Shown: positions 4,528 through 29,441, numbered from the stretch's first letter. The stretch: DNA of 64,000 bases from Bacilli bacterium (GCA_017447165.1 JAFSOD010000004.1:179267-243266); one strand, 5' to 3'. A program made the numbers and translations. The notes: generated by a model from the sequence alone, not told the origin.

Positions 4528-5697
4528 TCACTTATTATAAATAACTTTTGGTCCACTGTCCTTAACAAATATTTCTTGAACATTATTTTCTCCGTAGTGT
4601 TCTTTCATTTTTACTAAAACTTTTTCTAGTTTAGAAGTAGGAACTAAAGCAATAACACTTCCTGCAAAGCCACCACCATTAATTTTGACAGCCCCTTGAT
4701 TATCGCTATATTTCATTAATAAATCACACGCTTCTAAAGGTGAACCTTCGTAGTTAGATCCCACCATCATATTTTTTAAATATTTAGTGGAAGATTCTCT
4801 TGATTCATTAATCATTTTTAAAAATGTTTCTTGTTCATTATCCTGTAGTGCTTTAAAAGCATTTCTCACTCTAGAATTTTCTCCATAAAAATGTTTAGCT
4901 CTTAAATAAGCCATCTCACTCATCTCACTTTTATGAGCTTCTACTTCCTCAAAAGTACCTTCGACTAAATAATTATGTCCACACGCTTTAGCGGCTTCAT
5001 ACATATCACTAGGTATAGAAGAATATAAATCACTGAGAGATGAATGATCTCCACCAGTATTTACTAAAACAAAGTGTAAATCTTTAAATGGGAATTCAAT
5101 TTGTTCAACTAGAGGATCATCAATATTTTTAAAGTCAATTTTTACAACTCCACCAAAACCAACTCCAATTTGATCCAAAAGACCACTTTTCTTTCCAAAA
5201 TATTCATTTTCTGCGTATTTTCCAGCTTTACAAAGTTCTAATTTAGAGATCTTGCCATTATTAAATAAAACATTAAAAATGTGTCCCACTAAAAGTTCGA
5301 AAGCAGCAGAGCTAGATACGCCCGCTCCTTTAAAGATTGTGGATTCGCTATAAGCGTTAAATCCTCCAACTTTGTAGCCATGTTCTTTTAAATAAGCAGC
5401 AACTCCTCTTATTAATCCTTTTGAAGTTGCGTATTCTTTTTCATTCGCGTTTAAATCAGATAAATCTACTTCATCTAACTCAAAACCTAGAGATTGAAAT
5501 AAGACTTTATTAGAGTCGTTTTTACTAACTGAAGCAACAATTTCTAAATTACAAGCACTGGCTAAACATAGACCGTGGTTATGATCTGTATGATTGCCTA
5601 AGATTTCAAAGCGTCCACCACAGGAAAAAACATGTTCAGTGTCACTAACAAATATCTTTTTATATTCAGATAATAATTTAGAAACGTTATCTTCCAC
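4528..5697 (-). CDS. galK: galactokinase-family GHMP kinase
   Basis: 389 aa. Galactokinase signature GRFEILGNHTDHNHG and GHMP ATP motif GAGVSSSAAFE. No galT or galE neighbour, so the substrate is uncertain. Confidence 0.65.
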   Translation of the reverse strand: MEDNVSKLLSEYKKIFVSDTEHVFSCGGRFEILGNHTDHNHGLCLASACNLEIVASVSKNDSNKVLFQSLGFELDEVDLSDLNANEKEYATSKGLIRGVAAYLKEHGYKVGGFNAYSESTIFKGAGVSSSAAFELLVGHIFNVLFNNGKISKLELCKAGKYAENEYFGKKSGLLDQIGVGFGGVVKIDFKNIDDPLVEQIEFPFKDLHFVLVNTGGDHSSLSDLYSSIPSDMYEAAKACGHNYLVEGTFEEVEAHKSEMSEMAYLRAKHFYGENSRVRNAFKALQDNEQETFLKMINESRESSTKYLKNMMVGSNYEGSPLEACDLLMKYSDNQGAVKINGGGFAGSVIALVPTSKLEKVLVKMKEHYGENNVQEIFVKDSGPKVIYNK

Positions 5698-6254
5698 TAT
5701 TTGATTTTTCTTCCTTCTGAAAATGCTTGTCCAACTTTTTTACCCACAACATAATAGCCATGGTTAAAAGGATCATATGAAATGATTTGCATTTTTTCTA
5801 AATCAACTTTACCGTTTTCATCTAGATATTTATCATCCACTAAGAGTTGAACAATATTACCAATAATTCCATAGTCCTCTTTAAAACATTCAAGTGTACA
5901 CTCTAAAGAATAAGGTAAGTCATCTAAAATTGGCGCGTCCACTAATTCACTCTTATGAGCTTTCCAACCAGTTTTTTCAAACTTCTTTGGATCATTTTTA
6001 CTAGATACAACACCAACAAAATCCGCTGGAACCATATTGCTAACATTAGCCAAAGAAACAGTAAAGGCTTTTCTTTTTCTAATATTCTCAGTTGTGCGAT
6101 GAGAATCAGAAATATTAAGTTCGATTTGTTTTGTGTCAAATGCGCATCCCCAAGCCGCGTTCATTACATCGATAGAACCATCATCATTGTAGGTTGCTAT
6201 TAAAATTACAGGCATTGGGAATATTGCTGGGCAAATATTCATTTTCTTTTTCAT
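5697..6254 (-). CDS. flavin reductase-like FMN-binding (split-barrel) protein
   Basis: 185 aa. Family-typical pattern PMPVILIATYNDDGSIDVMNAAWG...AFTVSLAN. Its stop overlaps the start of the downstream kinase gene by 1 nt. Confidence 0.7.
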   Translation of the reverse strand: MKKKMNICPAIFPMPVILIATYNDDGSIDVMNAAWGCAFDTKQIELNISDSHRTTENIRKRKAFTVSLANVSNMVPADFVGVVSSKNDPKKFEKTGWKAHKSELVDAPILDDLPYSLECTLECFKEDYGIIGNIVQLLVDDKYLDENGKVDLEKMQIISYDPFNHGYYVVGKKVGQAFSEGRKIK

Positions 6255-6257
6255 AGA

Positions 6258-7418
6258 TTATTCCTCCTCATTTTCACATATATAATTCATTAATCTATTA
6301 CAAGCATCTATTAAATTGCTTCTTGGAGTAGCGATATTTAATCTAATATATCCTTCTGCTGATTTTCCATAGTTAATTCCAGGCGCAACAACTAAGCCTG
6401 TAGATTCTTTTAGTCTTTTTACAAATAACCTTGAATCTTTACTATAATAAGAAATATCAATCCATACTAAATAGGTATAAGTTCCGCTGACAATTTTAAA
6501 ATTCGGATGGTTTTTGCGCAAAAATTCAATCAAAAATGTTCTATTTTCATTTAAATATGAGTTTAATTGATCTACATACTCATCTCCACAAGTAAAAGCA
6601 GTAATAACCGGATCAACTGCAAAATAATTTGGTTCACCAATATCGTCTTGCCAAAACCCGTTTTGCACCATTTCTTTTAACTCGTTATTAGGGATAATAG
6701 CTACTGAAGAATGTAATCCAGCAACATTAAATACCTTACTAGGAGATAACAATGTAATTACTTTGTCGTATTGAGTGACTCCACTATTTAAAATAGAGAT
6801 ATATCTTCCTTTATTTAGATCAATATCGCCATGAATTTCATCAGATATTACATAGACATTATTTTGTTTACATAGGTTAATTATCTTATTTAATTCATCT
6901 ATTGTAAATTTTCTTCCTAGTGGATTATGAGGATTACATAATAAGAAAAATTCCGCTCCATGTAGTTGAGTTTCTAGTTTTTTCCAATCAATACTAAGAT
7001 CTTTATCTAGAATAAATTCACACTCCTTTAGAACTAAATTATTGTTTTTGATACAGTTAAAAAACACATTATAAACAGGGGTGAACATTACAACTTCATC
7101 TTTTGGTTCACCTAAATGTTTAAATATAGAATCAATTGAGGCCACAACTGATTTAGAAAATATAAACCAATCTTTTTCTAATGTTGTGCTATGTCGATCT
7201 CTCCACCAACGAATATATGCTTGGTAATATGAATCAGGGACAAATGTATAGCCATAGCAAGCTTGCTCTGCCCTAGCTTTAATTGCTTTTTTTATTTCTG
7301 GCATAGCCATAAAATCCATGTCGGCAATATCTAAAGGAAGTTCACCTTCATTTACATTCCAACGAATACTACATGATTCTTTTCTATTTATAGAAGCATC
7401 AAAATTATATTTGCTCAT
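6258..7418 (-). CDS. PLP-dependent C-S lyase/aminotransferase of the MalY/PatB class
   Basis: 386 aa. PLP-lysine context LLSPSKVFNVAGL and class I/II aminotransferase layout. Confidence 0.8.
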   Translation of the reverse strand: MSKYNFDASINRKESCSIRWNVNEGELPLDIADMDFMAMPEIKKAIKARAEQACYGYTFVPDSYYQAYIRWWRDRHSTTLEKDWFIFSKSVVASIDSIFKHLGEPKDEVVMFTPVYNVFFNCIKNNNLVLKECEFILDKDLSIDWKKLETQLHGAEFFLLCNPHNPLGRKFTIDELNKIINLCKQNNVYVISDEIHGDIDLNKGRYISILNSGVTQYDKVITLLSPSKVFNVAGLHSSVAIIPNNELKEMVQNGFWQDDIGEPNYFAVDPVITAFTCGDEYVDQLNSYLNENRTFLIEFLRKNHPNFKIVSGTYTYLVWIDISYYSKDSRLFVKRLKESTGLVVAPGINYGKSAEGYIRLNIATPRSNLIDACNRLMNYICENEEE

Positions 7419-8253
7419 TGATGATTATCTCCGTTTTAGAAACATCAATTTTATCTTTTTCTAATATTAACTTTTTTATGCCTTTGCATTCAATTCTTCC
7501 AGAGATTGGATTTTTAACTGAATCAATAACACTTTTGACTTTTATATCTAAACGAGAACAATATTCAAAACATAAATCAGAATCAATTAGTTCACAATTA
7601 ATCATTTTAACGTTATCCATATAGCATAATCCCTGGTGTGAAATGATTTTGCAGTTTATAAACGTCACATTTTTACTATTCCAAGCTAGATACTCTCCAA
7701 TAATCGTAGAATCTGTAACAACGACATTTTCGACATTCCAAAAAGCATCTTTGGTTTTCAAAACTGAATTATGGATCTTGATGTTTTTTGCCCCATCAAA
7801 GCCATAATTTCCATCTAAAGATAAATTTTCAATTTCTAACTCTTCAGAATTAAAACCAAAATAATCGCCTTTAACTTCAATATTAATTAATTTAACACCC
7901 TTACATTTCCAAAGTGTTTCATCTGCATGCGGTAATTTAACATTTATTAAGGATATAGATTCACTTCTTCTAAATGTTTTAGGAGCTTCGATTATTGTAT
8001 CTATTATTTCAATGTTTTTTGTGTACCATATTCCGCTTCTTGCGGTATATAACAATTTTGAATTTCTTACTTTAACATTCTGGCAATACCATAATGGGTA
8101 TTTCCATTGAAAAGTTGATTCAATTATTTGGATATCTTTGCTTTCCTTTAATGGAGACTCTCCATCATGAAAATAACATTTATGAAAAGTGGCCTCACTA
8201 GTCATAAACATCGCTCGCTCACCACTAAAAGACTGTTCGTTATAATATTTCAT
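7405..8253 (-). CDS. DUF3737-like beta-helix repeat protein
   Basis: 282 aa starting MKYYNEQSFSGERAMF...GESPLKE, with repeated short N/I-rich turns typical of a right-handed beta-helix. The family name is from memory only. Confidence 0.5.
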   Translation of the reverse strand: MKYYNEQSFSGERAMFMTSEATFHKCYFHDGESPLKESKDIQIIESTFQWKYPLWYCQNVKVRNSKLLYTARSGIWYTKNIEIIDTIIEAPKTFRRSESISLINVKLPHADETLWKCKGVKLINIEVKGDYFGFNSEELEIENLSLDGNYGFDGAKNIKIHNSVLKTKDAFWNVENVVVTDSTIIGEYLAWNSKNVTFINCKIISHQGLCYMDNVKMINCELIDSDLCFEYCSRLDIKVKSVIDSVKNPISGRIECKGIKKLILEKDKIDVSKTEIIINEQI

Positions 8254-8254
8254 A

Positions 8255-8932
8255 TTATTTACTTTGTTGAATTAAACTATCAAGATAGTTAATTAGGCTA
8301 TCAACACCTTCATTTTTTATAGAAGAAAGAGCAAATATTTTTGCTTCAGGATTTCTAAATAATATATTCTCTTTAGCCTTAGAAAGATCAAAATCAAAAA
8401 TATCAGCGACATCCATTTTAGAAATGACCGCGATTTTACTGACTTGGAACATAAGAGGATATTTTAATGGTTTATCGTGTCCTTCAGAAGTTGATAATAA
8501 CATCATGTTTATATTACTGCCTGTATCAAATTCAGCAGGACAAACAAGATTACCGACGTTTTCTAGTATTAATAAGTCTAAATCATCTACCCCAAAAGCT
8601 TTTAAGGCATCTTCCACCATTTGAGCGGTCAAATGACACGCTCCAGAAGTATGAACTTGAATGACTTTTACGCCGGTATTCTGACTAATTCTTTCCGCAT
8701 CAACATCCCCATCAATATCCGCCTCAAGAACACCAATACGGTATTTAGATTTTAAAGAATTAATTACTCTAGTTAATAAAGTAGTCTTTCCACTACCAGG
8801 GGAGGCCATGACATTAATAAAATAAATGCCTTTTTCTTTTAAAAATGCTCTTAAAGAGTCTGCTTTCTTATTATTTTCAATTAATATATCTTCTTTGACT
8901 TTAACAATTTGAATATCCATGTGTAATATCAT
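8255..8932 (-). CDS. hypB: HypB-type nickel-incorporation GTPase (copy 1)
   Basis: 225 aa. Walker A SPGSGKTTLL, metal-site residues GACHL and ENVGNLVCPAEFD, and NKxD-like SKMD. No N-terminal His/Cys-rich Ni tail. The start could be the internal ATG at 8920. Confidence 0.85.
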   Translation of the reverse strand: MILHMDIQIVKVKEDILIENNKKADSLRAFLKEKGIYFINVMASPGSGKTTLLTRVINSLKSKYRIGVLEADIDGDVDAERISQNTGVKVIQVHTSGACHLTAQMVEDALKAFGVDDLDLLILENVGNLVCPAEFDTGSNINMMLLSTSEGHDKPLKYPLMFQVSKIAVISKMDVADIFDFDLSKAKENILFRNPEAKIFALSSIKNEGVDSLINYLDSLIQQSK

Positions 8933-8937
8933 ACCAC

Positions 8938-8957
8938 AAAATAAAATATTTTATTTT
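8938..8957. promoter_or_regulatory. perfect 20-bp palindrome aaaataaaatattttatttt between the divergent hypB genes
   Basis: Read directly; self-complementary over all 20 nt. It sits in the ~60-70-bp divergent promoter region. Confidence 0.4.
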
Positions 8958-8990
8958 AATATTTTTAATTTTCTAGATATAATGATGAGG

Positions 8991-9665
8991 ATGGAAAAAG
9001 TAAGAACTATTCTATTGAATCGTTCTGCCTATGCAGATAATGATCAAGAAGCTGATGAGCTAAGAAGCTATTTAAAAGACCACCAAACATTTGTGGTTAA
9101 TTTAATGTCTTCTCCAGGAGCGGGTAAAACCACTACTCTAATTAAATTAATCAACATTCTTAAGAAAGATTTTAAAATTGGGGTAATGGAAGCGGATATC
9201 GATAGTGATGTTGATGCAGTTAATGTCGCTAAAGAAACTGGAGTGACATCTATTCAATTACACACTAACGGAATGTGTCACTTAGATGCTGGCATGACTA
9301 AAACTGGACTAGACGGCATTAACTTCAATGATTTTGATCTTATTTTCTTAGAAAATGTTGGTAATCTTGTTTGCCCTGCCGAATTTGATACCGGGGCCTC
9401 TATGGATATGATGATTCTTTCTGTCCCTGAGGGCGATGATAAGCCAATTAAATATCCACTGGTGTTTGAAAAATCAAAACTAGTGCTCATAAATAAGATC
9501 GATGCTCTTCCATATTTCGACTTTAATATAGAGAAATGTATTTCTAATATTAAATACCGTAATAAAAATGCTACAATAATACCGATAAGTGCAAAAACAG
9601 GTAAAAATATCGATTTAGTCGCTAAATATTTCAAAGATATAGTTTCAAATTGGAGGAATAGCTAA
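8991..9665 (+). CDS. hypB: HypB-type nickel-incorporation GTPase (copy 2)
   Basis: Walker A SPGAGKTTTL, NGMCHL, ENVGNLVCPAEFD and NKID. I prefer the ATG at 8991 (preceded by gatgagg) over the track start at 8919. Its stop overlaps the next start (TAATG). Confidence 0.85.
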   Translation: MEKVRTILLNRSAYADNDQEADELRSYLKDHQTFVVNLMSSPGAGKTTTLIKLINILKKDFKIGVMEADIDSDVDAVNVAKETGVTSIQLHTNGMCHLDAGMTKTGLDGINFNDFDLIFLENVGNLVCPAEFDTGASMDMMILSVPEGDDKPIKYPLVFEKSKLVLINKIDALPYFDFNIEKCISNIKYRNKNATIIPISAKTGKNIDLVAKYFKDIVSNWRNS

Positions 9666-12562
9666 TGCCAGAGAAATGTAAAAAACCAGAAGTCACATCA
9701 AAATATGATGGTGAAAAAGACTTTCATAAGAATTATGCGAAATTAGGTAAGAAAATTACTGATATTGTCCCACACAAATTATTTGGGGTGAAAAACACTG
9801 ACCCTGAATATTGGGGACTTAGAGAAGTATTAAATGAAGATCAAGTTAATTTCTTGCTTAAATTCAAACAAAGAAAATGGTATTTGATTGAAGACTTAAT
9901 TAAAAAGTTTAAAGGTCAATTTGAACCTGCTAGAGTGCAACAACTTTTAGATGAACTTTCTTATATTGGTTTTATTGAATATGACTATGGAGATAATTAT
10001 GCGGAAGATCATCCAATTAAAGACGCTCCAAAAATCAAAAGATATAGAATGTCTTATTTCGTCCCTGGTTCAGCTGAATTAATGAATTCCTCTATTGATA
10101 GAATTGAAAAAAATCCTGCAGTTACTAACTTCTTTGAAAGAATGACATTTGTTCCACTCGCGGGTATTACTGAAATGATTGGTCCAGGTGGTAACGGTAT
10201 TGGTATGCACACCATCCCAGTAGAAAAAGCTATTCAAGGAGAACAAAAATCTCTTCCAGTAGAACATATTTCCCACTGGTTAAATAAATATGAAGGTCAT
10301 ATCTCCGCTGGTATTTGTTCTTGTAGAGCAAGTAGAGCAAAATTAGGAGATGGATGTATCGACGATGTCGATGACTGGTGTATCCAAGTTGGTGATATGG
10401 CGGACTATACTGTTGAAACAAAACGTGCCCACTATATCACAAAAGAAAGAGCCTTAGAGATTCTTGAACTCGCTGAGAAAAACGGATTCGTTCACCAAAT
10501 TACTAATATCGACGGCAAAGACCATATCTTTGATATTTGTAACTGTGATGTTAAAATCTGTAACGCTTTAAGAACATCAATGTTATTTAACACTCCTAAC
10601 TTATCTAGAAGTGCTTATACCGCTAAAGTCACTACTACTAACTGTGTGGCGTGCGGACAATGTGTTGCTAACTGTCCTGCTGGAGCGGTTAAACTCGGAC
10701 AAAAATTATGTAAAGGCGACGGCAAAGAACAAAAATATCCAAGTCAACCATTACCAGATAAAATCCACTGGGGTAAATATGCTTGGGATGAAAATTATAG
10801 AGACACTGCTAGAGCCAGTGATACCTATCCAACAGGTACCGCTCCTTGTAAAGTGGCTTGTCCAGCTCATGTCCCAGTTCAAGGCTATTTAAAGATGGCT
10901 CATGAAGGAAGATATAGAGAATCCTTAGCATTAATTAAAACTCAAAACCCATTCCCAGCAGTCTGTGGTAGAGTCTGTAATAAACGCTGTGAAGATGAAT
11001 GTACTAGAGGAAAAATCGATCAAGCCGTCTCTATTGATGCGGTCAAAAAATTTGTCGCTGATTTAGAAATCAACTCTAAAGATAGATATATTCCTGAAAA
11101 GATTATCCCATCAGTTCACGGGGAATTTGACGAAAAAATCGCCATTATTGGAGCAGGTCCAGCAGGATTATCTGCTGCCTACTATTTAGCAATCGCAGGC
11201 TTTAGACCAACTGTCTTTGAAAAAAATGAGAAGCCAGGTGGAATGTTAAGATATGGTATTCCTTCTTATAAATTAGAAAAAGATGTAATCGATGCCGAAA
11301 TCGATGTCATCAAAGCGCTTGGTGTTGAAATCAAATGTGGAGTCGAAGTGGGTAAAGACGTCACTATCGAATCCTTAAAGAAGGAAGGCTATAAAGCATT
11401 CTATATCGCGATTGGCTGTCAAGGCGGAAGAAGACCTGGTGTTAATAATGACACCGCTAAAGGTACAGAGATTGCTGTCTCTTATTTAAGAGAAGCGCTT
11501 GATAAGCAAAAAGAATTTAAAGGCAAAGTGGTCGTCGTTGGTGGCGGTAACGTCGCTGTTGACTGTGCTAGAACTGCTCATAGATTAAAAGCAGAATCTG
11601 TTTCTATGTACTGCTTAGAAGATAGAGACCACATGCCTGCTAGTAATGATGAAATTAGAGAAACTCTTGAAGAAGATATTTCTATCAATAACTCTTGGGG
11701 ACCAAAAGAAGTTCTCGTTAACGAGAAAGGTGAAGTTAAAGGTATTGTCTTTAAGAAATGTACATCCGTTACTGATAAAGATGGTAAATTCAATCCTCAA
11801 TATGATGAAAACGACACTATTACCGTGGAAGCTGATAAGATTATCTTTGCTATCGGTCAAGCCATTGAATGGGGCGACTTATTAAAAGGCACTAAAGTTG
11901 AGTTCTGGCATGGCAATTATCCATTCGCTGATAAAGTCACATATCAAACTAACGATGATGATATCTTTGTAGGTGGCGATGTCTTCACCGGACCAAAATT
12001 TGTTATTGATGCAATCGCCGCTGGTCACGCTGTTGCTGACGCTTTAGCAAGACACGTAAGACCAAATGCTCACCCAACCATCGCCTTTAATAAGAGAGGA
12101 TTCACTCCACTTAATAAAGATGATATTACTCTTCCAGGATATGACGATGCTGGTAGACAAGAAGAAGGTATGGATGAGTCCATCGACTATAAGAATAGCT
12201 TCAAAGATGCTCATAAGACTTTAACTGAAGAGCAAGTGAAGATCGAAACTGGTAGATGCTTATCTTGTGGTGCCGCATTTGTTGATCCACATAAATGTAT
12301 CGGTTGTGGTATTTGTACCACAAAATGTGAATTTGATGCGATTCACTTAGTAAGAGACCATCCAAAAGCTTCTACTATGAGATTCGCCGAAGATAAAGTT
12401 ACTGGCTTACTTAAATATGCTGTACCAAGATGGTTCAAGATTATGTTTAACGCTGGTAGCAAAGAAGCCAGAATGATGAGAAAGAAACGTAAAGCATGGA
12501 AGAAACACTACAAAGTAGCAAAGAAGACCATGCCAGATACAGGTAACGCCGTCGATGCATGA
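9665..12562 (+). CDS. multidomain Fe-S flavoprotein: unknown Cys-rich N-domain, ferredoxin motif, GltD-like NAD(P)H/FAD oxidoreductase and C-terminal 2x[4Fe-4S] ferredoxin
   Basis: 965 aa. Motifs: CSCRASRAKLGDGC...CNCDVKICNALR, CVACGQCVANCP, GltD-type CKVACPAHVPVQ...CGRVCNKRCEDECTRG, dinucleotide folds IAIIGAGPAGLSAAYYLA and VVVVGGGNVAVDCA, and CLSCG...CIGCGICTTKCEFDAI. Confidence 0.75.
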   Translation: MPEKCKKPEVTSKYDGEKDFHKNYAKLGKKITDIVPHKLFGVKNTDPEYWGLREVLNEDQVNFLLKFKQRKWYLIEDLIKKFKGQFEPARVQQLLDELSYIGFIEYDYGDNYAEDHPIKDAPKIKRYRMSYFVPGSAELMNSSIDRIEKNPAVTNFFERMTFVPLAGITEMIGPGGNGIGMHTIPVEKAIQGEQKSLPVEHISHWLNKYEGHISAGICSCRASRAKLGDGCIDDVDDWCIQVGDMADYTVETKRAHYITKERALEILELAEKNGFVHQITNIDGKDHIFDICNCDVKICNALRTSMLFNTPNLSRSAYTAKVTTTNCVACGQCVANCPAGAVKLGQKLCKGDGKEQKYPSQPLPDKIHWGKYAWDENYRDTARASDTYPTGTAPCKVACPAHVPVQGYLKMAHEGRYRESLALIKTQNPFPAVCGRVCNKRCEDECTRGKIDQAVSIDAVKKFVADLEINSKDRYIPEKIIPSVHGEFDEKIAIIGAGPAGLSAAYYLAIAGFRPTVFEKNEKPGGMLRYGIPSYKLEKDVIDAEIDVIKALGVEIKCGVEVGKDVTIESLKKEGYKAFYIAIGCQGGRRPGVNNDTAKGTEIAVSYLREALDKQKEFKGKVVVVGGGNVAVDCARTAHRLKAESVSMYCLEDRDHMPASNDEIRETLEEDISINNSWGPKEVLVNEKGEVKGIVFKKCTSVTDKDGKFNPQYDENDTITVEADKIIFAIGQAIEWGDLLKGTKVEFWHGNYPFADKVTYQTNDDDIFVGGDVFTGPKFVIDAIAAGHAVADALARHVRPNAHPTIAFNKRGFTPLNKDDITLPGYDDAGRQEEGMDESIDYKNSFKDAHKTLTEEQVKIETGRCLSCGAAFVDPHKCIGCGICTTKCEFDAIHLVRDHPKASTMRFAEDKVTGLLKYAVPRWFKIMFNAGSKEARMMRKKRKAWKKHYKVAKKTMPDTGNAVDA

Positions 12563-12899
12563 GTTAGGTATCGTCGTTCACGTTATTAATCAAATCGAAA
12601 AAATTGCCGAAGAAAATAAAGTTAATAAAGTCGTTGAACTCACTTTAGAAGTGGGCGAAGTTTCTGGGGTAGTTAAAGAATATTTTGTTGATGCATTCAA
12701 CTGGTCAATTAAAAAGACCAAGTATATGAAGGAATGTAAACTAAATTTTGTCACTATCAAAGGAATTACTTACTGCGAAAGTTGCGGTAAGACCTACTCC
12801 ACGACTGAGTATGGCAAAGAATGTCCATATTGTCACTCTGGTAAGACCTATCTAGTTACTGGAAAAGAAGTTTCAATTAAGGATATTAAAGTTATCTAA
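12555..12899 (+). CDS. hypA: HypA nickel metallochaperone
   Basis: 114 aa. N-terminal MHE Ni-binding motif and zinc site CESCG...CPYCHS. The start overlaps the upstream stop (ATGCATGA). Confidence 0.85.
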   Translation: MHELGIVVHVINQIEKIAEENKVNKVVELTLEVGEVSGVVKEYFVDAFNWSIKKTKYMKECKLNFVTIKGITYCESCGKTYSTTEYGKECPYCHSGKTYLVTGKEVSIKDIKVI

Positions 12900-12905
12900 A
12901 TAAAC

Positions 12906-12935
12906 AAAAAGACGCAGGCTCCCGCGTCTTTTTCA
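12906..12935. terminator. bidirectional hairpin terminator between hypA and the convergent membrane-protein gene
   Basis: aaaaagacgcaggctcccgcgtcttttt: GC-rich stem flanked by an A-run and a T-run. Confidence 0.65.
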
Positions 12936-16226: not shown

Positions 16227-17657
16227 TTATCTTTTGAGTTTTTCCAATGAGTCAACAATAGTCTGACTCTTAGCTTCCATGCCGTACTTATCAACATCAG
16301 CCTTATTTCTCACTTCGTGAGTTAGTGAACATGGTCCGCCAATGCAGCCGCCAGGACAAGCCATTCCTTCAATAAAGTTATAGTCTTTATTGCCTGCTTT
16401 TACCTTTAATAACGCTAAACGAATATTTTCTAAGCCATCAACTGGTAATGGCCTATAATCGAATTCTAATTCTCTTTCTTTGATAGCTTCTCTAACCGCA
16501 TCAGTAATACCTCTACTTCTTGCGAAGATTCTACCGAAATAAGAGGCATTATCAAATGGTGATTCCTCTAATTTAGAGGCATCTATTTCTCTAGCGTCAA
16601 TAAGAGCCTGCAACTCTTCAAAAGTTAAAGTAACATCAACGTAAGGTTTAACAGACTCTAATTTGATTTCATGTTTTTTAGAAATACATGGTCCTATAAA
16701 CATTATTTTCGCAGTTGGATAATGTTCTTTAATCCATTTGGCGATGCTCGCCATCGGAGACAAATTAGAAGATATGTGTTCTACTAATGTAGGAAAATTC
16801 TTTTTGATATAGGTAACAAATGTTGGGCAGCAACTAGAAGTCAAAAATCTTTTTTCAACTAATTCTTTAGCCTCGTTATATGCGACCATATCCGCACCTA
16901 AAGCCGCTTCCACTATTTCTGAGAATCCTAATTCGTGCATTGCTGAGGCGATTTGGCCTAAGGTTGCATATTTAAACTGAGTAGATATTGTTGGAGCAAC
17001 AATAGCGACAGTTGGATATTTTTTACCAAAATCACTATCCTTTAGGATATCGATAGCTTCTTTAATATAAGATTTATCCATGATAGCGCCAAATGGACAT
17101 TGATAAACACAAGCTCCACATTGGACACACTTCTCATCATCGATTTGGGCAGCATTATCTTCGCCCATGCTTATAGCATGAACTTTACATGCTTGTTCAC
17201 ATGGTCTTTGATAGTTTTGAATTGCCCCATATTGGCATGCTTTAGCGCACATTCCACAGTTGATACATTTCTCTTTATTAATACGCGCCGCGTGGGTAAT
17301 ATCATCAAAACTAATCGCATCTTTATGACATGCCATCTGGCATCTATGAGCGATACAACCTCTACACCTATTAGTGACTTCATATCCACCTAAAGGACAT
17401 TCATCACATGCCACTTTAATAACTTCAACAATGTTATTTATATCTTTAGATCCACCTAAGGCTAATTTCATTCTTTCTAAAACGATTGCTCTCTCTTTAT
17501 AGATACAGCAACGCATTGTTGGCTTTGGACCAGGAACAATCTTATTAGGAATAGAATTATAATCTTCTAAAAGGGTGCCATTAAAATAAGATTTCGCAAT
17601 CTCTTTAAGCACCTTATATTTAAGTTCTTGTACTTTGGTATCAAATACAGCGGACAT
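16227..17657 (-). CDS. [FeFe]-hydrogenase family protein with N-terminal ferredoxin-type clusters
   Basis: 476 aa. H-cluster motifs TSSCCPTFV, GPCISKKHE and EGMACPGGCIGGP, plus two CxxCxxCxxxCP motifs (CINCGMCAKACQ, CVQCGACVYQCP). Confidence 0.8.
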   Translation of the reverse strand: MSAVFDTKVQELKYKVLKEIAKSYFNGTLLEDYNSIPNKIVPGPKPTMRCCIYKERAIVLERMKLALGGSKDINNIVEVIKVACDECPLGGYEVTNRCRGCIAHRCQMACHKDAISFDDITHAARINKEKCINCGMCAKACQYGAIQNYQRPCEQACKVHAISMGEDNAAQIDDEKCVQCGACVYQCPFGAIMDKSYIKEAIDILKDSDFGKKYPTVAIVAPTISTQFKYATLGQIASAMHELGFSEIVEAALGADMVAYNEAKELVEKRFLTSSCCPTFVTYIKKNFPTLVEHISSNLSPMASIAKWIKEHYPTAKIMFIGPCISKKHEIKLESVKPYVDVTLTFEELQALIDAREIDASKLEESPFDNASYFGRIFARSRGITDAVREAIKERELEFDYRPLPVDGLENIRLALLKVKAGNKDYNFIEGMACPGGCIGGPCSLTHEVRNKADVDKYGMEAKSQTIVDSLEKLKR

Positions 17658-24956: not shown

Positions 24957-25583
24957 TTAATATTCTTCTTTCTTTTTCTTTTTGGTTTTCGCTATTACTA
25001 ATATTTCGATAGTTTTTGCTCCTTTGCTTCTTAATAAATCGATTGAAGTTAAAAGTGTGCTTCCTGTAGTCATAATGTCATCTACTAACAATATCTTTTT
25101 ACCCTTCATTGATATATTTTCATCTATTTCTAAAACATCATTTATCTTATGTCTTCCAAGTGAAGATTGATCAGACTGTTTATGCGCTGTTTTCTTCTTC
25201 AAAATGGGTAATTCTTTAAGCTTTAAACTCTCAAAAATCGCTTTTACGTGATTAAAACCACGCCGCTCATCATCAATGTGATAAGAAGGTATATAGACGA
25301 TATGATAACCATGATATTTTAACTTCAAAAAAGTTAGATATCGATCTAAGAAAACATCCTTTAATTCATAGTCATAACAACCTTTAAATTTATAGATTAA
25401 TTCCTTTATAAAATCTGTATATTCATAGACGGCTGTCCCTTTTATATTTCCTATTTCGAAAGACACAAATTTAGCCTGTAATTTACTAAAACAATCTCCA
25501 CATAAAATGTTCTTCCTTTTCAATAAGTTATATATGGAATTATCCGTTATTCTTTTAAAGCAAATTTTACAGAAATTATCCAT
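24957..25583 (-). CDS. comFC: ComFC/ComF-family protein (phosphoribosyltransferase-like)
   Basis: 208 aa. N-terminal Cys pairs CKIC...CGDC and PRTase motif ILLVDDIMTTGSTL. Overlaps the comFA stop by 8 nt. Confidence 0.85.
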   Translation of the reverse strand: MDNFCKICFKRITDNSIYNLLKRKNILCGDCFSKLQAKFVSFEIGNIKGTAVYEYTDFIKELIYKFKGCYDYELKDVFLDRYLTFLKLKYHGYHIVYIPSYHIDDERRGFNHVKAIFESLKLKELPILKKKTAHKQSDQSSLGRHKINDVLEIDENISMKGKKILLVDDIMTTGSTLLTSIDLLRSKGAKTIEILVIAKTKKKKKEEY

Positions 25584-26775
25584 TATCTAATGCCTCATTA
25601 TTCTTCTTTATTTCTTCTATAGATTCTTTAATATCGGAAGTCACTTTTTCGCATAGATAAATTACTTCTCCTTCTGGCGCATCAGCCTTTCTTCCCACTC
25701 GTCCTGCGATTTGAATTAAAGTGCCTTTTTCATATATTTTATGGTCAGTTTGACTGATAATTACCTGCAAATTCTTTACAGTTACCCCTCTTTCTAGTAC
25801 TGATGTAGTTACTAAATATGAAAATAAGTGATTACGAAATTCTTCGATTATTTCAGATCTATAATTCCTTTTAGAATGAACATAATTTCCACCTTTAACA
25901 AATAAGGAAATTACTCTATAGATTTTCTCACATAAATTAATGGTGGGAGCAAAAACAAATACAGGTTTGTTATTTTTCTTATATTCCTTTATTTTTCTAA
26001 TTAAATATAAGTATTGAAATAGCGTATTTCGTTTAACTATTTTGGGTATTGGAAGAGGATGACGATGAAAACGAACTTCTAATCTTAATATATCTTTGTT
26101 ATCTCCATGGAAATGATCTATTACTTCTTTAGATGGAGTGGCGGACATCATAACATAATGACCACACAAAGATTGATAGAACATGCTATGTAATGTTGGA
26201 TCATCTTTAAACGGAAAAGCGTCTATCTCATCTAGGATAATTAAAGAGAAATAATTCTTGTATCTATATAGTTGATGTGTGGTTAGGACAACTATATCGC
26301 CTTCTTTATCTTTTGTGTGCCCTCCATATAAGCAAACCACTTTGTTATATTTAAATATTTCTCTTAACCTATTATGTAATTCTATTGCAACATCTCTTCT
26401 AGGGAGCGCAAACGCGACCTTATCGCCACAATTAATTGCATATTTAATAATGTTGAGGCAAATTTCAGTCTTTCCTGATCCACATACAGCAAAAACAAGA
26501 CTATCTATTCCTTTCTTATAGTTCTCCACTAACTTATCGGATAATTCTTTCTGTTCTGGAGATAGCTCGTACTCTAAATGAATAGGTGCTTTCTTGGGAT
26601 AAGATGGCTTATGTTCTACTTCTTCACCACGAAAAGAGATACACCTACGACAATAGGGTTTGCCATTAAGATATCCAATTGAATGTATATCGGTGTTACC
26701 ACAAATAGGGCATTTATAAGTTTCTATGTTGCAACATCTCCTTTCTTTTGATTTAATATTTATACAACCTGTCAC
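25576..26775 (-). CDS. comFA: ComFA competence DNA-uptake helicase/translocase (only full-length copy)
   Basis: 399 aa. N-terminal 4-Cys motif CPICG...CRRC, Walker A AVCGSGKTE, DEID box, and the VTTSVLERGVT and QIAGRVGR helicase motifs. The start is uncertain: the track uses GTG 26775 inside a hairpin, and the position homologous to the ATG of fragment F2 is ATA (26727-26725). Confidence 0.85.
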   Translation of the reverse strand: MTGCINIKSKERRCCNIETYKCPICGNTDIHSIGYLNGKPYCRRCISFRGEEVEHKPSYPKKAPIHLEYELSPEQKELSDKLVENYKKGIDSLVFAVCGSGKTEICLNIIKYAINCGDKVAFALPRRDVAIELHNRLREIFKYNKVVCLYGGHTKDKEGDIVVLTTHQLYRYKNYFSLIILDEIDAFPFKDDPTLHSMFYQSLCGHYVMMSATPSKEVIDHFHGDNKDILRLEVRFHRHPLPIPKIVKRNTLFQYLYLIRKIKEYKKNNKPVFVFAPTINLCEKIYRVISLFVKGGNYVHSKRNYRSEIIEEFRNHLFSYLVTTSVLERGVTVKNLQVIISQTDHKIYEKGTLIQIAGRVGRKADAPEGEVIYLCEKVTSDIKESIEEIKKNNEALDNG

Positions 26776-26803: not shown

Positions 26804-27127
26804 TTATTTTAACTTAACAGGTTTTCTTCTTTTTATAATTCTTATTGTCAATCTATCATCAGGGTGTATTTTCATACCAATCAATTCTCTTGATCCAAAA
26901 TGCTTACGTTTACCCTGAACAGGTCTATTGTTCACAAACTAAGCCTTAACTTTATTTTCGGTAGGATGTTTTAGTTTTGTCTGATGTCTATGTTGAGATG
27001 TTCCTGTGATAACAGCAATATAAATGTTCTTTTTATCATTCTTTAAAACAATTAAACCAGGGTGTTTGTTTACTATATAAAATTTTCCTTTTTCTAAATG
27101 TTTGTTATAAATCTTTTTCTTACTCAT
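26804..27127 (-). pseudogene. cassette ORF A1 (small basic protein superfamily), interrupted by an in-frame TAG at 26939-26941
   Basis: The 62-aa ORF is MSKKKIYNKHLEKGKFYIVNKHPGLIVLKNDKKNIYIAVITGTS.... After the TAG, the same frame continues FVNNRPVQGKRKHFGSRELIGMKIHPDDRLTIRIIKRRKPVKLK, which aligns with the C-terminal half of A2. Confidence 0.7.
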
Positions 27128-27142
27128 ATTTCCTCCTTTCTG

Positions 27143-27424
27143 TTATGTATTTCGTGTTTTTGGGGATCCACATACGGCAAAAACTAAACTATCAATTCCT
27201 TTTTTATAATTCTCTACCAGCCTATCTGATAATTCTTTTTGCTCTGGAGACAACTCATATTCAAGATGAATAGGTGCTTTCTTTGGGTAAGATGGTTTAT
27301 GTTCTACTTCTTCGCCTCGAAAAGAGATGCATCTACGACAATAAGGTTTGCCGTTTAGATAGCCAATAGAATGAATATCAGTGTTGCCACAAACTGGACA
27401 AGTAAATGAAAGCTGGTTATCCAT
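27143..27424 (-). CDS. F1: open 93-aa comFA N-terminal fragment (Zn-ribbon region up to a disrupted Walker A, GSPKT)
   Basis: 77 of 79 aligned residues are identical to ComFA, yet 32 of those codons differ synonymously. It ends GSPKTRNT* inside the conserved linker, 15 nt before the ATG of A1. Confidence 0.8.
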   Translation of the reverse strand: MDNQLSFTCPVCGNTDIHSIGYLNGKPYCRRCISFRGEEVEHKPSYPKKAPIHLEYELSPEQKELSDRLVENYKKGIDSLVFAVCGSPKTRNT

Positions 27425-27821
27425 TTTTCTTGCCTTTCTTTTTATGTTTTGATTTAATACTGGTAGATGGTGTGCGCCCTTTCTGGGTTAAAGCTTCATT
27501 CGTTAGCTTTCCACCATTTTTTCTTTGCTCTTTAATTAGTGAAACATATACATCTATTTTTATTTCATCGGAAACTACTAAACGATACTTTTTAAGTTCT
27601 TGTCCTCTATGTCGGAGTTTATCTTTTCTTATATACTTTCTGAAATAAGATTTCTTGTCTGAATTGGGATTTGGATTTACATCAAATTCTTCATAATTTC
27701 CAGTTACAGTTGGACTATCAGTTATTTCGATATTTTCCCATGTTCCATCTTCTAGAACACTGATTTCTATTGATGGGTGGTATTTAGTTCTTTTGTTTTT
27801 AAATATTTTATATTTATTCAT
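27417..27821 (-). CDS. cassette ORF B1, 134-aa basic protein of unknown function
   Basis: MNKYKIFKNKRTKYHPSIEISV...ITDSP...VNPNPNSDKKSYFRKYIRKD...RGQ. Homologous to B2. Its Lys-rich tail is encoded by what is comFA 5' UTR in other copies, and its stop overlaps the F1 start (ATGGATAA). Confidence 0.7.
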   Translation of the reverse strand: MNKYKIFKNKRTKYHPSIEISVLEDGTWENIEITDSPTVTGNYEEFDVNPNPNSDKKSYFRKYIRKDKLRHRGQELKKYRLVVSDEIKIDVYVSLIKEQRKNGGKLTNEALTQKGRTPSTSIKSKHKKKGKKNG

Positions 27822-27840
27822 GTATCAATTCCTTTCTATG

Positions 27841-28113
27841 TTATGGATTTGTTGTTTTTGGTGATCCACATACGGCAAAAACAAGACTATCTAAGCCTTT
27901 TTTGTAATTCTCAACTAACTTATCCGATAGTACTTTTTGCTCTGGAAACAGTTCGTACTCTAAATGAATAGGCGCCTTTTTAGGGTATGATGTTTTGTGT
28001 TCCACTTCTTCACCTTTAAAAGAGATACACCTACGGCAATAAAGTTTGCCGTTCAACATACCAATTGAATGAATATCAGTGTTACCACATACAGGACATT
28101 TATAAGGTTCCAT
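27841..28113 (-). CDS. F2: open 90-aa comFA N-terminal fragment (GSPKT end), the only copy with ATG at the conserved start position
   Basis: MEPYKCPVCGNTDIHSIGMLNGKLYCRRC...AVCGSPKTTNP*. Eight amino-acid differences from ComFA over the shared region. Confidence 0.75.
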   Translation of the reverse strand: MEPYKCPVCGNTDIHSIGMLNGKLYCRRCISFKGEEVEHKTSYPKKAPIHLEYELFPEQKVLSDKLVENYKKGLDSLVFAVCGSPKTTNP

Positions 28114-28148
28114 ATTGAATTATCACCTTTCTTTTGATTTAAAATAGC

Positions 28149-28219
28149 CATAGTCGTGGTCATCACTAGTTTGATGCCGGCCCACAGGAAGCTGTGTAGC
28201 TCCATTAACGGGGCTTTTT
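28149..28219 (-). repeat. E1: ~70-nt structured element, copy 1
   Basis: Aligns base for base with 28981-29050. It contains two 5-bp hairpins: catca/tgatg, and cacag/ctgtg at 28183-28196. Confidence 0.7.
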
Positions 28220-28305
28220 ATTTTTACGGTTTTATAATATTTGCCATATATTGGGCATTTATAAGTTTCTATATTGCGTTACCTCCTTAATTTTGTTTTA
28301 ATATT
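28202..28305 (-). pseudogene. deletion remnant: comFA 5' UTR plus 7 codons fused to the last ~14 codons of an A-type cassette ORF
   Basis: Minus strand reads aaggaggtaacgcaat ATA GAA ACT TAT AAA TGC CCA ATA TAT GGC AAA TAT TAT AAA. The comFA start (IETYKCPI) runs into the A2-like tail (PIYG.YYK...), with the junction at about 28246-28256. Confidence 0.65.
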
Positions 28306-28360
28306 TGTAGTTAGTGCTATCGGTTAATCCGACCAAAGCCCAAGTTTAGTAGGTTTTACA

Positions 28361-28657
28361 CTAACTTTTTTTGTTGTTTAAATAGTTTTCAATTTCAATT
28401 AAATCATCTTCTGATAGGTTGAATTTTTCCAAAAGTTGACCTCTTGTTTTAATTGGATCCTTTCTTAAATACTTTCTAACATATGCTTTATCATTTCTTT
28501 TTGGATTCGGATTTACTTTAAGCTCAATATATCTGTTCTTCTTAGTGGGGCTTGAAGTTACTTCTAAATTAATCCAAATAGTTCCGTTTGAATCTACTTC
28601 TATGCTTGGATGATTTTTTGTTTTTCTGTTTTTATAGAATTTGAATTTTTTGCTCAT
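28361..28657 (-). CDS. cassette ORF B2, ~98-aa basic protein of unknown function
   Basis: MSKKFKFYKNRKTKNHPSIEVDS...VTSSP...VNPNPKRNDKAYVRKYLRKD...RGQ. I prefer the ATG at 28657 (SD aaaggagg) over the track start at 28687. Confidence 0.7.
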   Translation of the reverse strand: MSKKFKFYKNRKTKNHPSIEVDSNGTIWINLEVTSSPTKKNRYIELKVNPNPKRNDKAYVRKYLRKDPIKTRGQLLEKFNLSEDDLIEIENYLNNKKS

Positions 28658-28696
28658 TTGACACCTCCTTTTTGTTATGGTTTTCAAGTCTTTGGT

Positions 28697-28945
28697 GATC
28701 CTTATATCGCATAAACTAAATTATCTATCCCTTTCTTATAGTTCTCCACTAACTTATCCGATAGTTCTTTCTGCTCAGGGGGACAACTCATACGATAAGT
28801 GAATTGGGGCCTTACGATATGAAGGCTTATGTTCCACTGCTTAACCCTTAAAATAGATACATCTTCGGGAGTAATGTTTGCCGTTTAGGTATCCTATTGA
28901 ATGAATACCAATGTTTCCACAAACTGGGCATTTATATGTTTCGAT
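28697..28945 (-). pseudogene. F3: decayed comFA 5' fragment
   Basis: Reads IETYKCPVCGNIGIHSIGYLNGKHYSRRCIYFKG* with GAA->TAA, loss of one Zn-ligand Cys (C->S), and a later 1-nt insertion (tccccctga). Confidence 0.8.
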
Positions 28946-28980
28946 ATTGCATCATCTCCTTAAATTTGATTTAATAATGT

Positions 28981-29050
28981 CATGGTCGTGGTCATCACAA
29001 GTTTGATGCCGACTCGTAGGTAACTACGCAGCTCCATTAACGGGGCTTTT
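28981..29050 (-). repeat. E2: ~70-nt structured element, copy 2 (overlaps the stop of A2)
   Basis: Same architecture as E1. The hairpin cgtag/ctacg at 29015-29028 carries two compensatory base-pair changes relative to E1. Confidence 0.7.
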
Positions 29051-29441
29051 TTATTTTTTTGCGTTTTTTATAATAAGAACCGTAAATAGGATTACCTTTT
29101 TGTACTTTAATAATTAAATACATATCTTGGATGCTAAACGACATATCTGGATATTCTTTTTCTCCGTAATCATTTCTATCTCCTATAAAAGGTCTTTTCT
29201 TTATTAGCGATATTTCAACGTTACTATCGGTTGCATGTTTTAATTTGTAATATCCTTTTCTTAAACCTAGACGATCAAATTCTTCTTTGGTCATTGATCC
29301 AGTGATAATTGCATAGAAAGCTTTATCTTCATTATCAATTTTAAAAATTTGTCCAGGATGTCCACCTGGGCTACCATCTAAAACACGATAAAACTTGCCG
29401 ATTTCAAGTGTTATCTTGTGTTTTCTTTTCTTTTTACTCAT
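29037..29441 (-). CDS. cassette ORF A2, 134-aa basic protein of unknown function
   Basis: MSKKKRKHKITLEIGKFYRVLDGSPGGHPGQIFKIDNEDKAFYAIITGS...KKRPFIGDRNDYG...IQDMYLIIKV...KKRKKIKKPR. SD aaaggagg before the ATG. Confidence 0.7.
   Translation of the reverse strand: MSKKKRKHKITLEIGKFYRVLDGSPGGHPGQIFKIDNEDKAFYAIITGSMTKEEFDRLGLRKGYYKLKHATDSNVEISLIKKRPFIGDRNDYGEKEYPDMSFSIQDMYLIIKVQKGNPIYGSYYKKRKKIKKPR

Follow-up and report, generated by a model that had tools for sequence, protein, structure and literature searches.

A 64,000-nucleotide stretch of the genome of a Bacilli bacterium (GCA_017447165.1, JAFSOD010000004.1:179267-243266), referred to as a whole as the window, contains an operon in which genes for the nickel (Ni) chaperones HypB and HypA enclose the gene for a 965-aa iron-sulfur (Fe-S) flavoprotein. 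Our analysis places this protein in the family of IsrA (VUZ27132.1, 901 aa), which was described from Acetobacterium wieringae ISORED-2 as a putative isoprene reductase (Kronen et al. 2023, PMC10134865). We consider it rather probable that the operon encodes an IsrA-family oxidoreductase together with a dedicated Ni-insertion machinery, and that a Ni-loaded centre of six cysteines (Cys6) in this enzyme reduces conjugated dienes. The first-pass annotation of the window had proposed that the flavoprotein is itself the client of HypA and HypB and had called it an unrecognised enzyme. The client hypothesis is sound, but it is already published and unproven; the same hypothesis had been put forward for the same family by Kronen et al. 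(2023, PMC10134865), and the word unrecognised must therefore be dropped. New in the present analysis are the invariance of residues in the N-terminal domain (N-domain), the lack of a fold relative for its Cys-rich subdomain in the Protein Data Bank (PDB), the presence of two HypB lineages and the link to a gene resembling that of the linoleate isomerase PAI.

The operon is a single unit on the plus strand with overlapping codons and consists of hypB2 (8991-9665), the gene for the 965-aa protein (9665-12562, hereafter the big gene) and hypA (12555-12899), while hypB1 (8255-8920, minus strand) diverges from it. All four open reading frames (ORFs) are confirmed where they had been annotated, and both overlaps on which translational coupling had been proposed are present in the sequence. 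TAATG forms the junction between the stop codon of hypB2 and the start codon of the big gene, with GGAGGAA located 7 nt upstream, and ATGCATGA is the overlap of the big gene's stop with the start of hypA. The ORF of hypB1 reaches to 8932 with a likely ATG at 8920 (MDIQIV...), and that of hypB2 begins at 8919 with a likely ATG at 8991 (MEKVRT...), preceded by GAGGA. Given these starts, the divergent intergenic region (8921-8990) is ~60-70 bp in length, which agrees with the shared region of ~60 bp described earlier. The operon is bounded on its 5' side by a promoter-like site (8956-8983, plus strand; TTAATA-16-TATAAT, 10/12 match) and on its 3' side by a bidirectional hairpin resembling an intrinsic terminator (12906-12933), which directly follows hypA and is shared with a convergent DUF308-like gene. 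The intergenic region also harbours a perfect 20-nt palindrome, AAAATAAAAT/ATTTTATTTT (8938-8957). It was considered as an operator, but it is not kept in the closest relative, locus L001, whose two hypB genes are separated by an inserted gene for a zinc-ribbon membrane protein of 184 aa.

Residues 1 to ~325 of the 965-aa protein have no match in a Pfam scan. This N-domain can be divided into a winged-helix-like subdomain (~aa 20-130; 9722-10054) and a Cys-rich subdomain (~aa 130-310; 10052-10594), the latter being the proposed Ni centre and corresponding to 'cluster V' of IsrA. It is followed by a first ferredoxin-type [4Fe-4S] motif (Fer4, C327-x2-C330-x2-C333-x3-C337; 10616-10705), a module of the DPD domain II type with two [4Fe-4S] clusters (aa 391-470; 10835-11074; PF14691, Fer4_20, 75.5 bits against a cut-off of 25.8), a domain binding flavin adenine dinucleotide (FAD) and NAD(P)H (Pyr_redox_2, PF07992, aa 491-787; 11135-12025) and a C-terminal ferredoxin-type [4Fe-4S] motif (~aa 868-905; 12266-12379; PF00037 at aa 872-893), all encoded on the plus strand. 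The earlier description of an uncharacterised N-domain joined to a GltD-like flavoprotein and ferredoxin modules is thus borne out. NCBIfam models of the GltD, NfnB and PRK12771 types match the core strongly, but every curated cut-off is missed (PRK12771, 442.8 against 516; TIGR01318, 246.1 against 483; TIGR01316, 262.6 against 471.8). For this reason, the protein shares the GltD/NfnB redox core without being a member of those families. The shared part extends over residues ~390-800 (PF14691 and PF07992), with its two [4Fe-4S] clusters, FAD and NAD(P)H site, whereas NfnB/GltD-type enzymes have neither the N-domain of 330 aa nor the additional Fer4 modules, and no link to Hyp chaperones. The winged helix might suggest a DNA-binding regulator, but this possibility was rejected, as every relative carries the helix as part of a complete redox enzyme.

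When the full library was searched by HMMER, the N-domain gave 869 representatives at 50% clustering, and a second homolog search used the full-length 965-aa protein to obtain full architectures. Alignment of 35 N-domain sequences, down to ~32% identity, reveals that G135, E138, P185, C218, C220, R221, C239, E271, G274, H277, C292, N293, C294 and C299 are invariant, along with the four Fer4 cysteines. Six cysteines of the N-domain (C218, C220, C239, C292, C294 and C299) are therefore invariant, and they include two Cys-X-Cys motifs. The Cys-rich motif that had been quoted from the N-domain in the first-pass annotation is upheld in part: C231, which it included, is variable, and it is the six other cysteines that are invariant. 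A PDB sequence search with the N-domain found no match, and no PDB structure is related in fold to the Cys-rich subdomain. Dozens of homologs from the Logan assemblies (P0027, P0036, P0040 and others) are exactly 564 aa in length and share an end that looks out of frame (SPATS.KRMLSPQR...), which suggests that a single site in one abundant species is repeatedly frameshifted.

The N-terminal region of IsrA is likewise unannotated and holds the six-Cys 'cluster V', with Cys-X-Cys motifs at C180/C182 and C254/C256; it is followed by Fer4 (289-300), DPD_II, the FAD/NAD(P) domain and a second Fer4 (848-877) (PMC10134865). The same order of domains is found in the 965-aa protein, again with hypA and hypB adjacent. 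The Cys-X-Cys at 218/220, the CNC at 292/294 and the Fer4 at 327 in the window protein stand at a constant offset of 38 from the residue numbers published for IsrA, the N-terminus being 38 residues longer in the window protein (965 aa against 901 aa in all). The spacings of 74 residues from one Cys-X-Cys to the other and of 109 from the first Cys-X-Cys to Fer4 are identical to those of IsrA, and both are kept in most of the distant full-length representatives examined. IsrA and the family of the window protein both come from strict anaerobes of many phyla. Judged by architecture, published motif spacing and proximity to hypA/hypB, the window protein is assigned to the IsrA-like clade 9. However, the two operons are not identical. 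In the isr operon, IsrA is encoded together with two copies of hypA, a single hypB and a ferredoxin gene (PMC10134865), the 'ferredoxin' being an extra N-domain-plus-Fer4 protein, whereas the window has two hypB and one hypA. The hosts also differ, IsrA being from an acetogen and the window from a rumen or gut Erysipelotrichaceae-like bacterium.

Both HypB proteins of the window score well above the curated cut-off of the HypB equivalog model TIGR00073 (240.8 bits for hypB1 and 213.3 bits for hypB2 against 121.2) and far below the cut-off of the UreG model. They are 47% identical to each other, their P-loops read SPGSGKTT (hypB1) and SPGAGKTT, and the Cys-His...Cys Ni site of the G-domain is kept in both (ACH/MCH, in hypB1 as GACH, with NVGNLVCP). 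HypA (PF01155, 100.6 bits against a cut-off of 28.9) begins with MHELG, which contains the Met-His-Glu (MHE) Ni motif, and carries two CxxC zinc motifs (CESC...CPYC). Since its score against the equivalog model TIGR00100 (74.5 bits) is below the cut-off of 88.1, it points to a divergent HypA subfamily. The Ni determinants are also kept among the chaperones linked to related big genes, MHE and the Cys4 zinc site in 60 of 61 HypA and the Cys-His...Cys site in 60 of 67 HypB. In the HypB tree, the B2 type, represented in the window by hypB2 and encoded directly upstream of the big gene, and the B1 type, to which hypB1 belongs, fall into separate clades. Orthologs of B1 are linked to the big gene in L001, L002, L015, L028 and L046 as well, and the tandem hypB pairs of other lineages likewise divide between two clades. 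hypB1 encodes a further HypB, which diverged anciently and is met repeatedly at loci of this kind, and the two recurrent lineages suggest that HypB may act as a heterodimer.

The same chaperones bear on the possibility that the Cys6 centre holds Fe-S only, be it a [4Fe-4S] cluster of unusual kind or a larger one of the non-cubane or double-cubane type, so that the protein would not be a nickel enzyme and the linked HypA/HypB paralogs would deliver zinc or iron or act in assembly or scaffolding. G3E GTPases include zinc and cobalt chaperones, the window HypA is below its equivalog cut-off, and a few linked HypB proteins carry Cys-Tyr in place of Cys-His, all of which would be in keeping with such a role. 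Kronen et al. (PMC10134865) first call the site a putative Fe-S cluster V, and they note that Cys-X-Cys is known in ferredoxin:thioredoxin reductase and ISCA2. However, both HypB proteins of the window are clear HypB rather than UreG by score, the near-complete retention of MHE and of the Cys-His...Cys site argues for Ni handling, and generic Fe-S assembly needs no dedicated, translationally coupled HypA/HypB pair. We therefore regard an Fe-S-only centre as unlikely, though it deserves to be taken seriously. The Cys-Tyr proteins form a HypB sub-lineage of their own (L032:866-1534, L038:7325-7999, L041:5728-6402 and L042:7328-7999), in which NxGNMVCPS is present instead of NVGNLVCPA.

Delivery of Ni by HypA/HypB to an enzyme other than a [NiFe] hydrogenase has a precedent in the urease maturation of Helicobacter pylori. 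The window HypB proteins are of the short type, with the Cys-His...Cys site of the G-domain only, like H. pylori HypB. However, the H. pylori client has its own UreEFGH and the hyp genes do not surround it, whereas in the window the chaperone genes are translationally coupled to that of the client. The A-cluster of acetyl-CoA synthase (ACS), the C-cluster of carbon monoxide dehydrogenase (CODH) and the double-cubane [8Fe-9S] reductases are likewise Cys-rich Ni-Fe-S or large Fe-S centres which reduce small unsaturated molecules, and a Cys-X-Cys motif binds Ni in ACS. The proposed cluster-binding domain of the window protein has no fold or sequence similarity to the ACS, CODH or double-cubane cluster folds. 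A likeness of the IsrA centre to ACS-type centres is suggested in the published account of IsrA, and insertion of Ni at cluster V was proposed there (PMC10134865).

The linkage of the big gene to hypA and hypB was analysed in related loci. At least 593 relatives of the N-domain were confirmed in a scan of one genome per GTDB species, and the best 80 of these loci were compared by searching their flanks with the proteins of the window; 62 of the 80 are evaluable, having the full gene and at least 1.5 kb on each side. hypA is present in 58 of the 62, in 57 of these within 500 nt, and hypB in 46, with two or more hypB genes in 10. The linked loci come from Erysipelotrichaceae, Clostridia, Oscillospiraceae, Lachnospiraceae (including Pseudobutyrivibrio, Roseburia and Dorea), Christensenella, Eggerthellaceae, Anaeroplasmataceae and a Hallerella bin. 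Clustering of the flanking ORFs reveals that only hypA and hypB are conserved, the next commonest family being present in 13 loci, and [NiFe] hydrogenase subunits and hypCDEF are absent from the conserved neighbourhoods of the related loci. The contexts of five representatives of distant subfamilies (31-38% N-domain identity) were also inspected. hypA lies directly downstream in four of the five, one of which also has a tandem pair of hypB genes and a gene for a TetR protein, while in the fifth, two tandem big-gene paralogs are followed by HGD-D-type genes. The arrangement of hyp genes with the flavoprotein is far beyond chance, and the phylogenetic co-occurrence that had been suggested as a check is evident across several phyla. 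It is also in line with the published figures for 988 clade 9 homologs, among which co-occurrence is 0.73 for HypA and 0.56 for HypB (PMC10134865). The proposal that the flavoprotein is the client of HypA/HypB is supported by this conserved linkage, by hypA in the distant subfamilies, by the kept Ni motifs and by the six invariant cysteines.

The linkage also bears on the view that the hyp genes serve a canonical Ni enzyme encoded elsewhere ([NiFe] hydrogenase, urease, CODH or a LarA system) and that their position is incidental. Some loci, such as those of Pseudobutyrivibrio (L058, L061 and L065), have hypA alone, which fits a hyp operon elsewhere that supplies HypB. However, start/stop overlaps bind the three genes of the window together, 58 of 62 loci from several phyla keep the hyp linkage, as do distant subfamilies, whereas the remaining neighbours all vary, and in ISORED-2 the linkage is present although [NiFe] hydrogenase and hypCDEF are missing, CODH/ACS and lactate racemase having maturases of their own there (PMC10134865). 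Because the linkage is conserved and the codons overlap, an incidental position is the least likely of the rival explanations and, in our estimate, very improbable.

No canonical Ni enzyme is visible in the window either. All the ORFs that encode 150 aa or more in the 64 kb were compared with Pfam, and among these ORFs no [NiFe] hydrogenase subunits, hypCDEF, urease, CODH/ACS or LarA and no recognisable Ni transporter were found, in agreement with the first-pass annotation, which had reported no [NiFe] large or small subunit, hypCDEF, urease or cooS. A block of five genes at 35-39 kb was considered as a Ni transporter and rejected, as it consists of recR, tmk, holB, a PSP1-domain gene and a methyltransferase gene with a TP_methylase domain. 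The sole hydrogenase-like gene is indeed of the [FeFe] type, as had been stated. It is located 3.3 kb from the operon (16227-17657, minus strand) and its product is a monomeric [FeFe] hydrogenase of group B (551.5 bits with TIGR04105, whose cut-off is 450); hydE, hydF and hydG were not found in the window.

We infer that the metal is Ni, that the Cys6 centre is its site and that electrons flow towards it from NAD(P)H. In the mechanism that we propose, the HypB GTPases would bind Ni at Cys-His...Cys, possibly as a B1/B2 heterodimer, and would hand it to HypA, where it would be bound at MHE. HypA would then load Ni into the six-Cys centre C218/C220/C239/C292/C294/C299, probably next to or within an Fe-S cluster. 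NAD(P)H would reduce the FAD of the GltD/NfnB-like module, electrons would run down the [4Fe-4S] chain to the Ni-containing centre, and this centre would hydrogenate a C=C bond of a conjugated diene.

As for the substrate, the operon of IsrA is induced by isoprene, and strains of the IsrA type reduce the conjugated dienes isoprene and 1,3-butadiene (PMC10134865). A 2026 preprint on an isoprene-reducing Pelotomaculum, which contains no biochemistry, reports hypA up 373-fold and hypB up 585-fold. However, isoprene is not reduced by Acetobacterium woodii or by other Acetobacterium strains in which homologs are encoded (PMC10134865). Because such carriers of clade 9 proteins do not use it, the substrate of the window enzyme is probably not isoprene. 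An oleate hydratase gene is located beside the A. woodii homolog, which is a hint of lipids (PMC10134865), and GDSL lipases that adjoin a distant pair of paralogs give a further one.

A more specific suggestion comes from a gene, here called X, which encodes a protein of ~460-480 aa; 14 of the 80 loci have it within the cluster or next to it. X matches the linoleate isomerase PAI of Propionibacterium acnes (PDB 2B9W) with E = 2e-112 over residues 5-423 of 424, and PAI turns linoleate into a conjugated linoleic acid (CLA), the trans-10,cis-12 isomer. Positions of X include L002:5945-7327, L015:5866-7317, L010:6536-7984, L021:6608-7987, L026:5728-7122 and L003:186-1625, among others. The order of genes is hypB, X, hypB, big gene, hypA in L015, and L002 has the same order with an ECF-S/methyltransferase gene between the first hypB and X. 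The end of X is often separated by 14-20 nt from the big gene, or from the hypB of that gene, which follows it; in L009, L010 and L021 it stops 14-20 nt upstream of the big gene itself. X is also co-operonic in many metagenome contigs from the human gut and the rumen (loci L090-L147). In the tree of big proteins, the window protein groups with L001 and L046 and is nested in a subclade that mostly carries X. A reciprocal scan of metagenomes for PAI-like genes gave 45 evaluable loci, 29 of which have an N-domain-bearing gene in the flank, the big gene usually lying 17-20 nt downstream and hypA ~2.9 kb beyond. For P. acnes PAI itself, no linkage to an IsrA-like gene is known, and its homologs from the gut and the rumen are predicted isomerases.

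Because of the analogy with IsrA and of the linoleate-isomerase homolog that is co-operonic in the protein's own subclade, the likeliest class of substrate would seem to be a conjugated-diene fatty acid such as trans-10,cis-12 CLA. An isomerase making a conjugated diene, followed by a reductase of conjugated dienes, forms a coherent two-step module of biohydrogenation. It is tempting to go one step further, although we hold this step to be doubtful on balance, and to suggest that the subclade might contain the missing CLA reductase of gut and rumen biohydrogenation, which would hydrogenate one double bond at a Ni-containing Cys6 centre of a new kind, with a dedicated HypA/HypB pair, a PAI-type isomerase for the upstream step and, in some lineages, a heterodimeric HypB. 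Our searches of the literature, within the papers searchable to us, found no paper that links CLA reduction or biohydrogenation to hypA/hypB or IsrA; only papers on isoprene were found.

It is also conceivable that the protein is a Ni-dependent client of HypA/HypB with a reaction other than the hydrogenation of alkenes, acting on H2, CO/CO2, acetylene-like compounds or oxyanions of nitrogen or sulfur, or forming an Nfn-like bifurcating module. The GltD/NfnB-like core is common to enzymes of many functions, some relatives stand beside genes for double-cubane-type reductases, an activator ATPase and a CdhC-like protein, no lipid or terpene gene adjoins the operon in the window, and the failure of homolog-bearing Acetobacterium strains to reduce isoprene would fit as well. 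However, the sole experimental link of any member of the family is to the reduction of conjugated dienes, and both the isomerase gene co-operonic in the window protein's subclade and the GDSL lipases flanking a distant paralog pair point away from such reactions. We consider a Ni-dependent enzyme of this kind to be quite unlikely.

Several points weigh against a Ni-dependent diene reductase, the reading that we prefer. The published support for the family is proteogenomic only (Kronen et al. 2023, PMC10134865), and Cys-X-Cys can also ligate ordinary Fe-S clusters, as the same authors point out. The genome is visible over 64 kb only, which would favour an incidental position of the hyp genes; neither chaperone is present in 4 of the 62 evaluable loci, and about a quarter of these loci have no hypB nearby. 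Both the HypB tree and the tree of big proteins are neighbour-joining trees without support values. Many of the metagenome loci with linked X are redundant contigs of a few human-gut species, many X-like genes in the metagenomes are not next to an IsrA-like gene, and several X-like lineages are unlinked. Moreover, no X-like gene is present in the window or in the available sequence of its closest relative, L001, and the inference of the substrate for the window locus is therefore indirect.

A number of related loci have additional features. Tandem IsrA-like paralogs, ~50% identical and with a single hypA, are present at L005:8001-14825, L019:5164-10922, L012:47-4585 and L087:5001-10644; the pairs of L005 and L019 are preceded by PAI, a second FAD protein resembling amine oxidase/CrtI and an FNR-like 2Fe-2S reductase. 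Beside the IsrA-like gene at L051:678-5975, in five similar loci and at L087:10684-12742, five genes form a block, the products of which are a CbiA/MinD-type ATPase, two HGD-D proteins, a BcrAD/BadFG activator ATPase and a weakly CdhC-like protein. The best match of one of these HGD-D proteins is the double-cubane reductase model NF040772, at a score under its cut-off. In L002, the 383-aa ORF between hypB and X (4720-5871) combines an ECF-transporter S-component with a methyltransferase domain, and may be a component for metal or vitamin uptake or a fused or mis-called pair of genes.

On the other side of the divergent region, hypB1 is the first gene of a tight string on the minus strand (4528-8920), in which it is followed by genes for DUF3737, a class I/II aminotransferase, a flavin-reductase-like protein and galactokinase, with adjacent stops and starts overlapping or abutting. 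This gene order is common to the window and L001 only, and for this reason hypB1 may also serve, or share regulation with, something other than the big gene. Other genes of the window are of housekeeping type (uvrB, secA, prfA, prfB, dnaX, recR, tmk, holB, typA, fusA and galK) or encode surface proteins and an ABC exporter, and an Rfam scan of the window found no riboswitch or other RNA family. In another region on the minus strand (26939-29441), the N-terminus of the DEAD-box helicase gene located at 25576-26775 is present in two further, truncated copies. These copies (ORFs 27143-27424 and 27841-28113, with CP(V/I)CGNTDIHSIG... in common) are interleaved with small, mutually similar, lysine-rich ORFs of 62-134 aa. 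This part of the window resembles a cassette that has been repeated, has a strongly negative AT skew and received no Rfam or Pfam assignment.

The number of known nickel enzymes is small, and a Ni-dependent reductase that is widespread in anaerobes (at least 593 species-level genomes) would add a class to them. If the window protein is a Ni enzyme, its metal would be bound by a fold without a solved relative. The window shows that the IsrA-like family is common in Firmicutes of the rumen and the gut, where the enzymes that hydrogenate conjugated fatty acids are poorly defined although they bear on milk-fat depression and on the trans-fat and CLA content of ruminant foods. The PAI-like gene of the same subclade supplies a concrete, testable substrate. 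If the subclade does contain the CLA reductase, the finding would provide both a new class of nickel enzyme and an enzyme of the 'trans-10' pathway.

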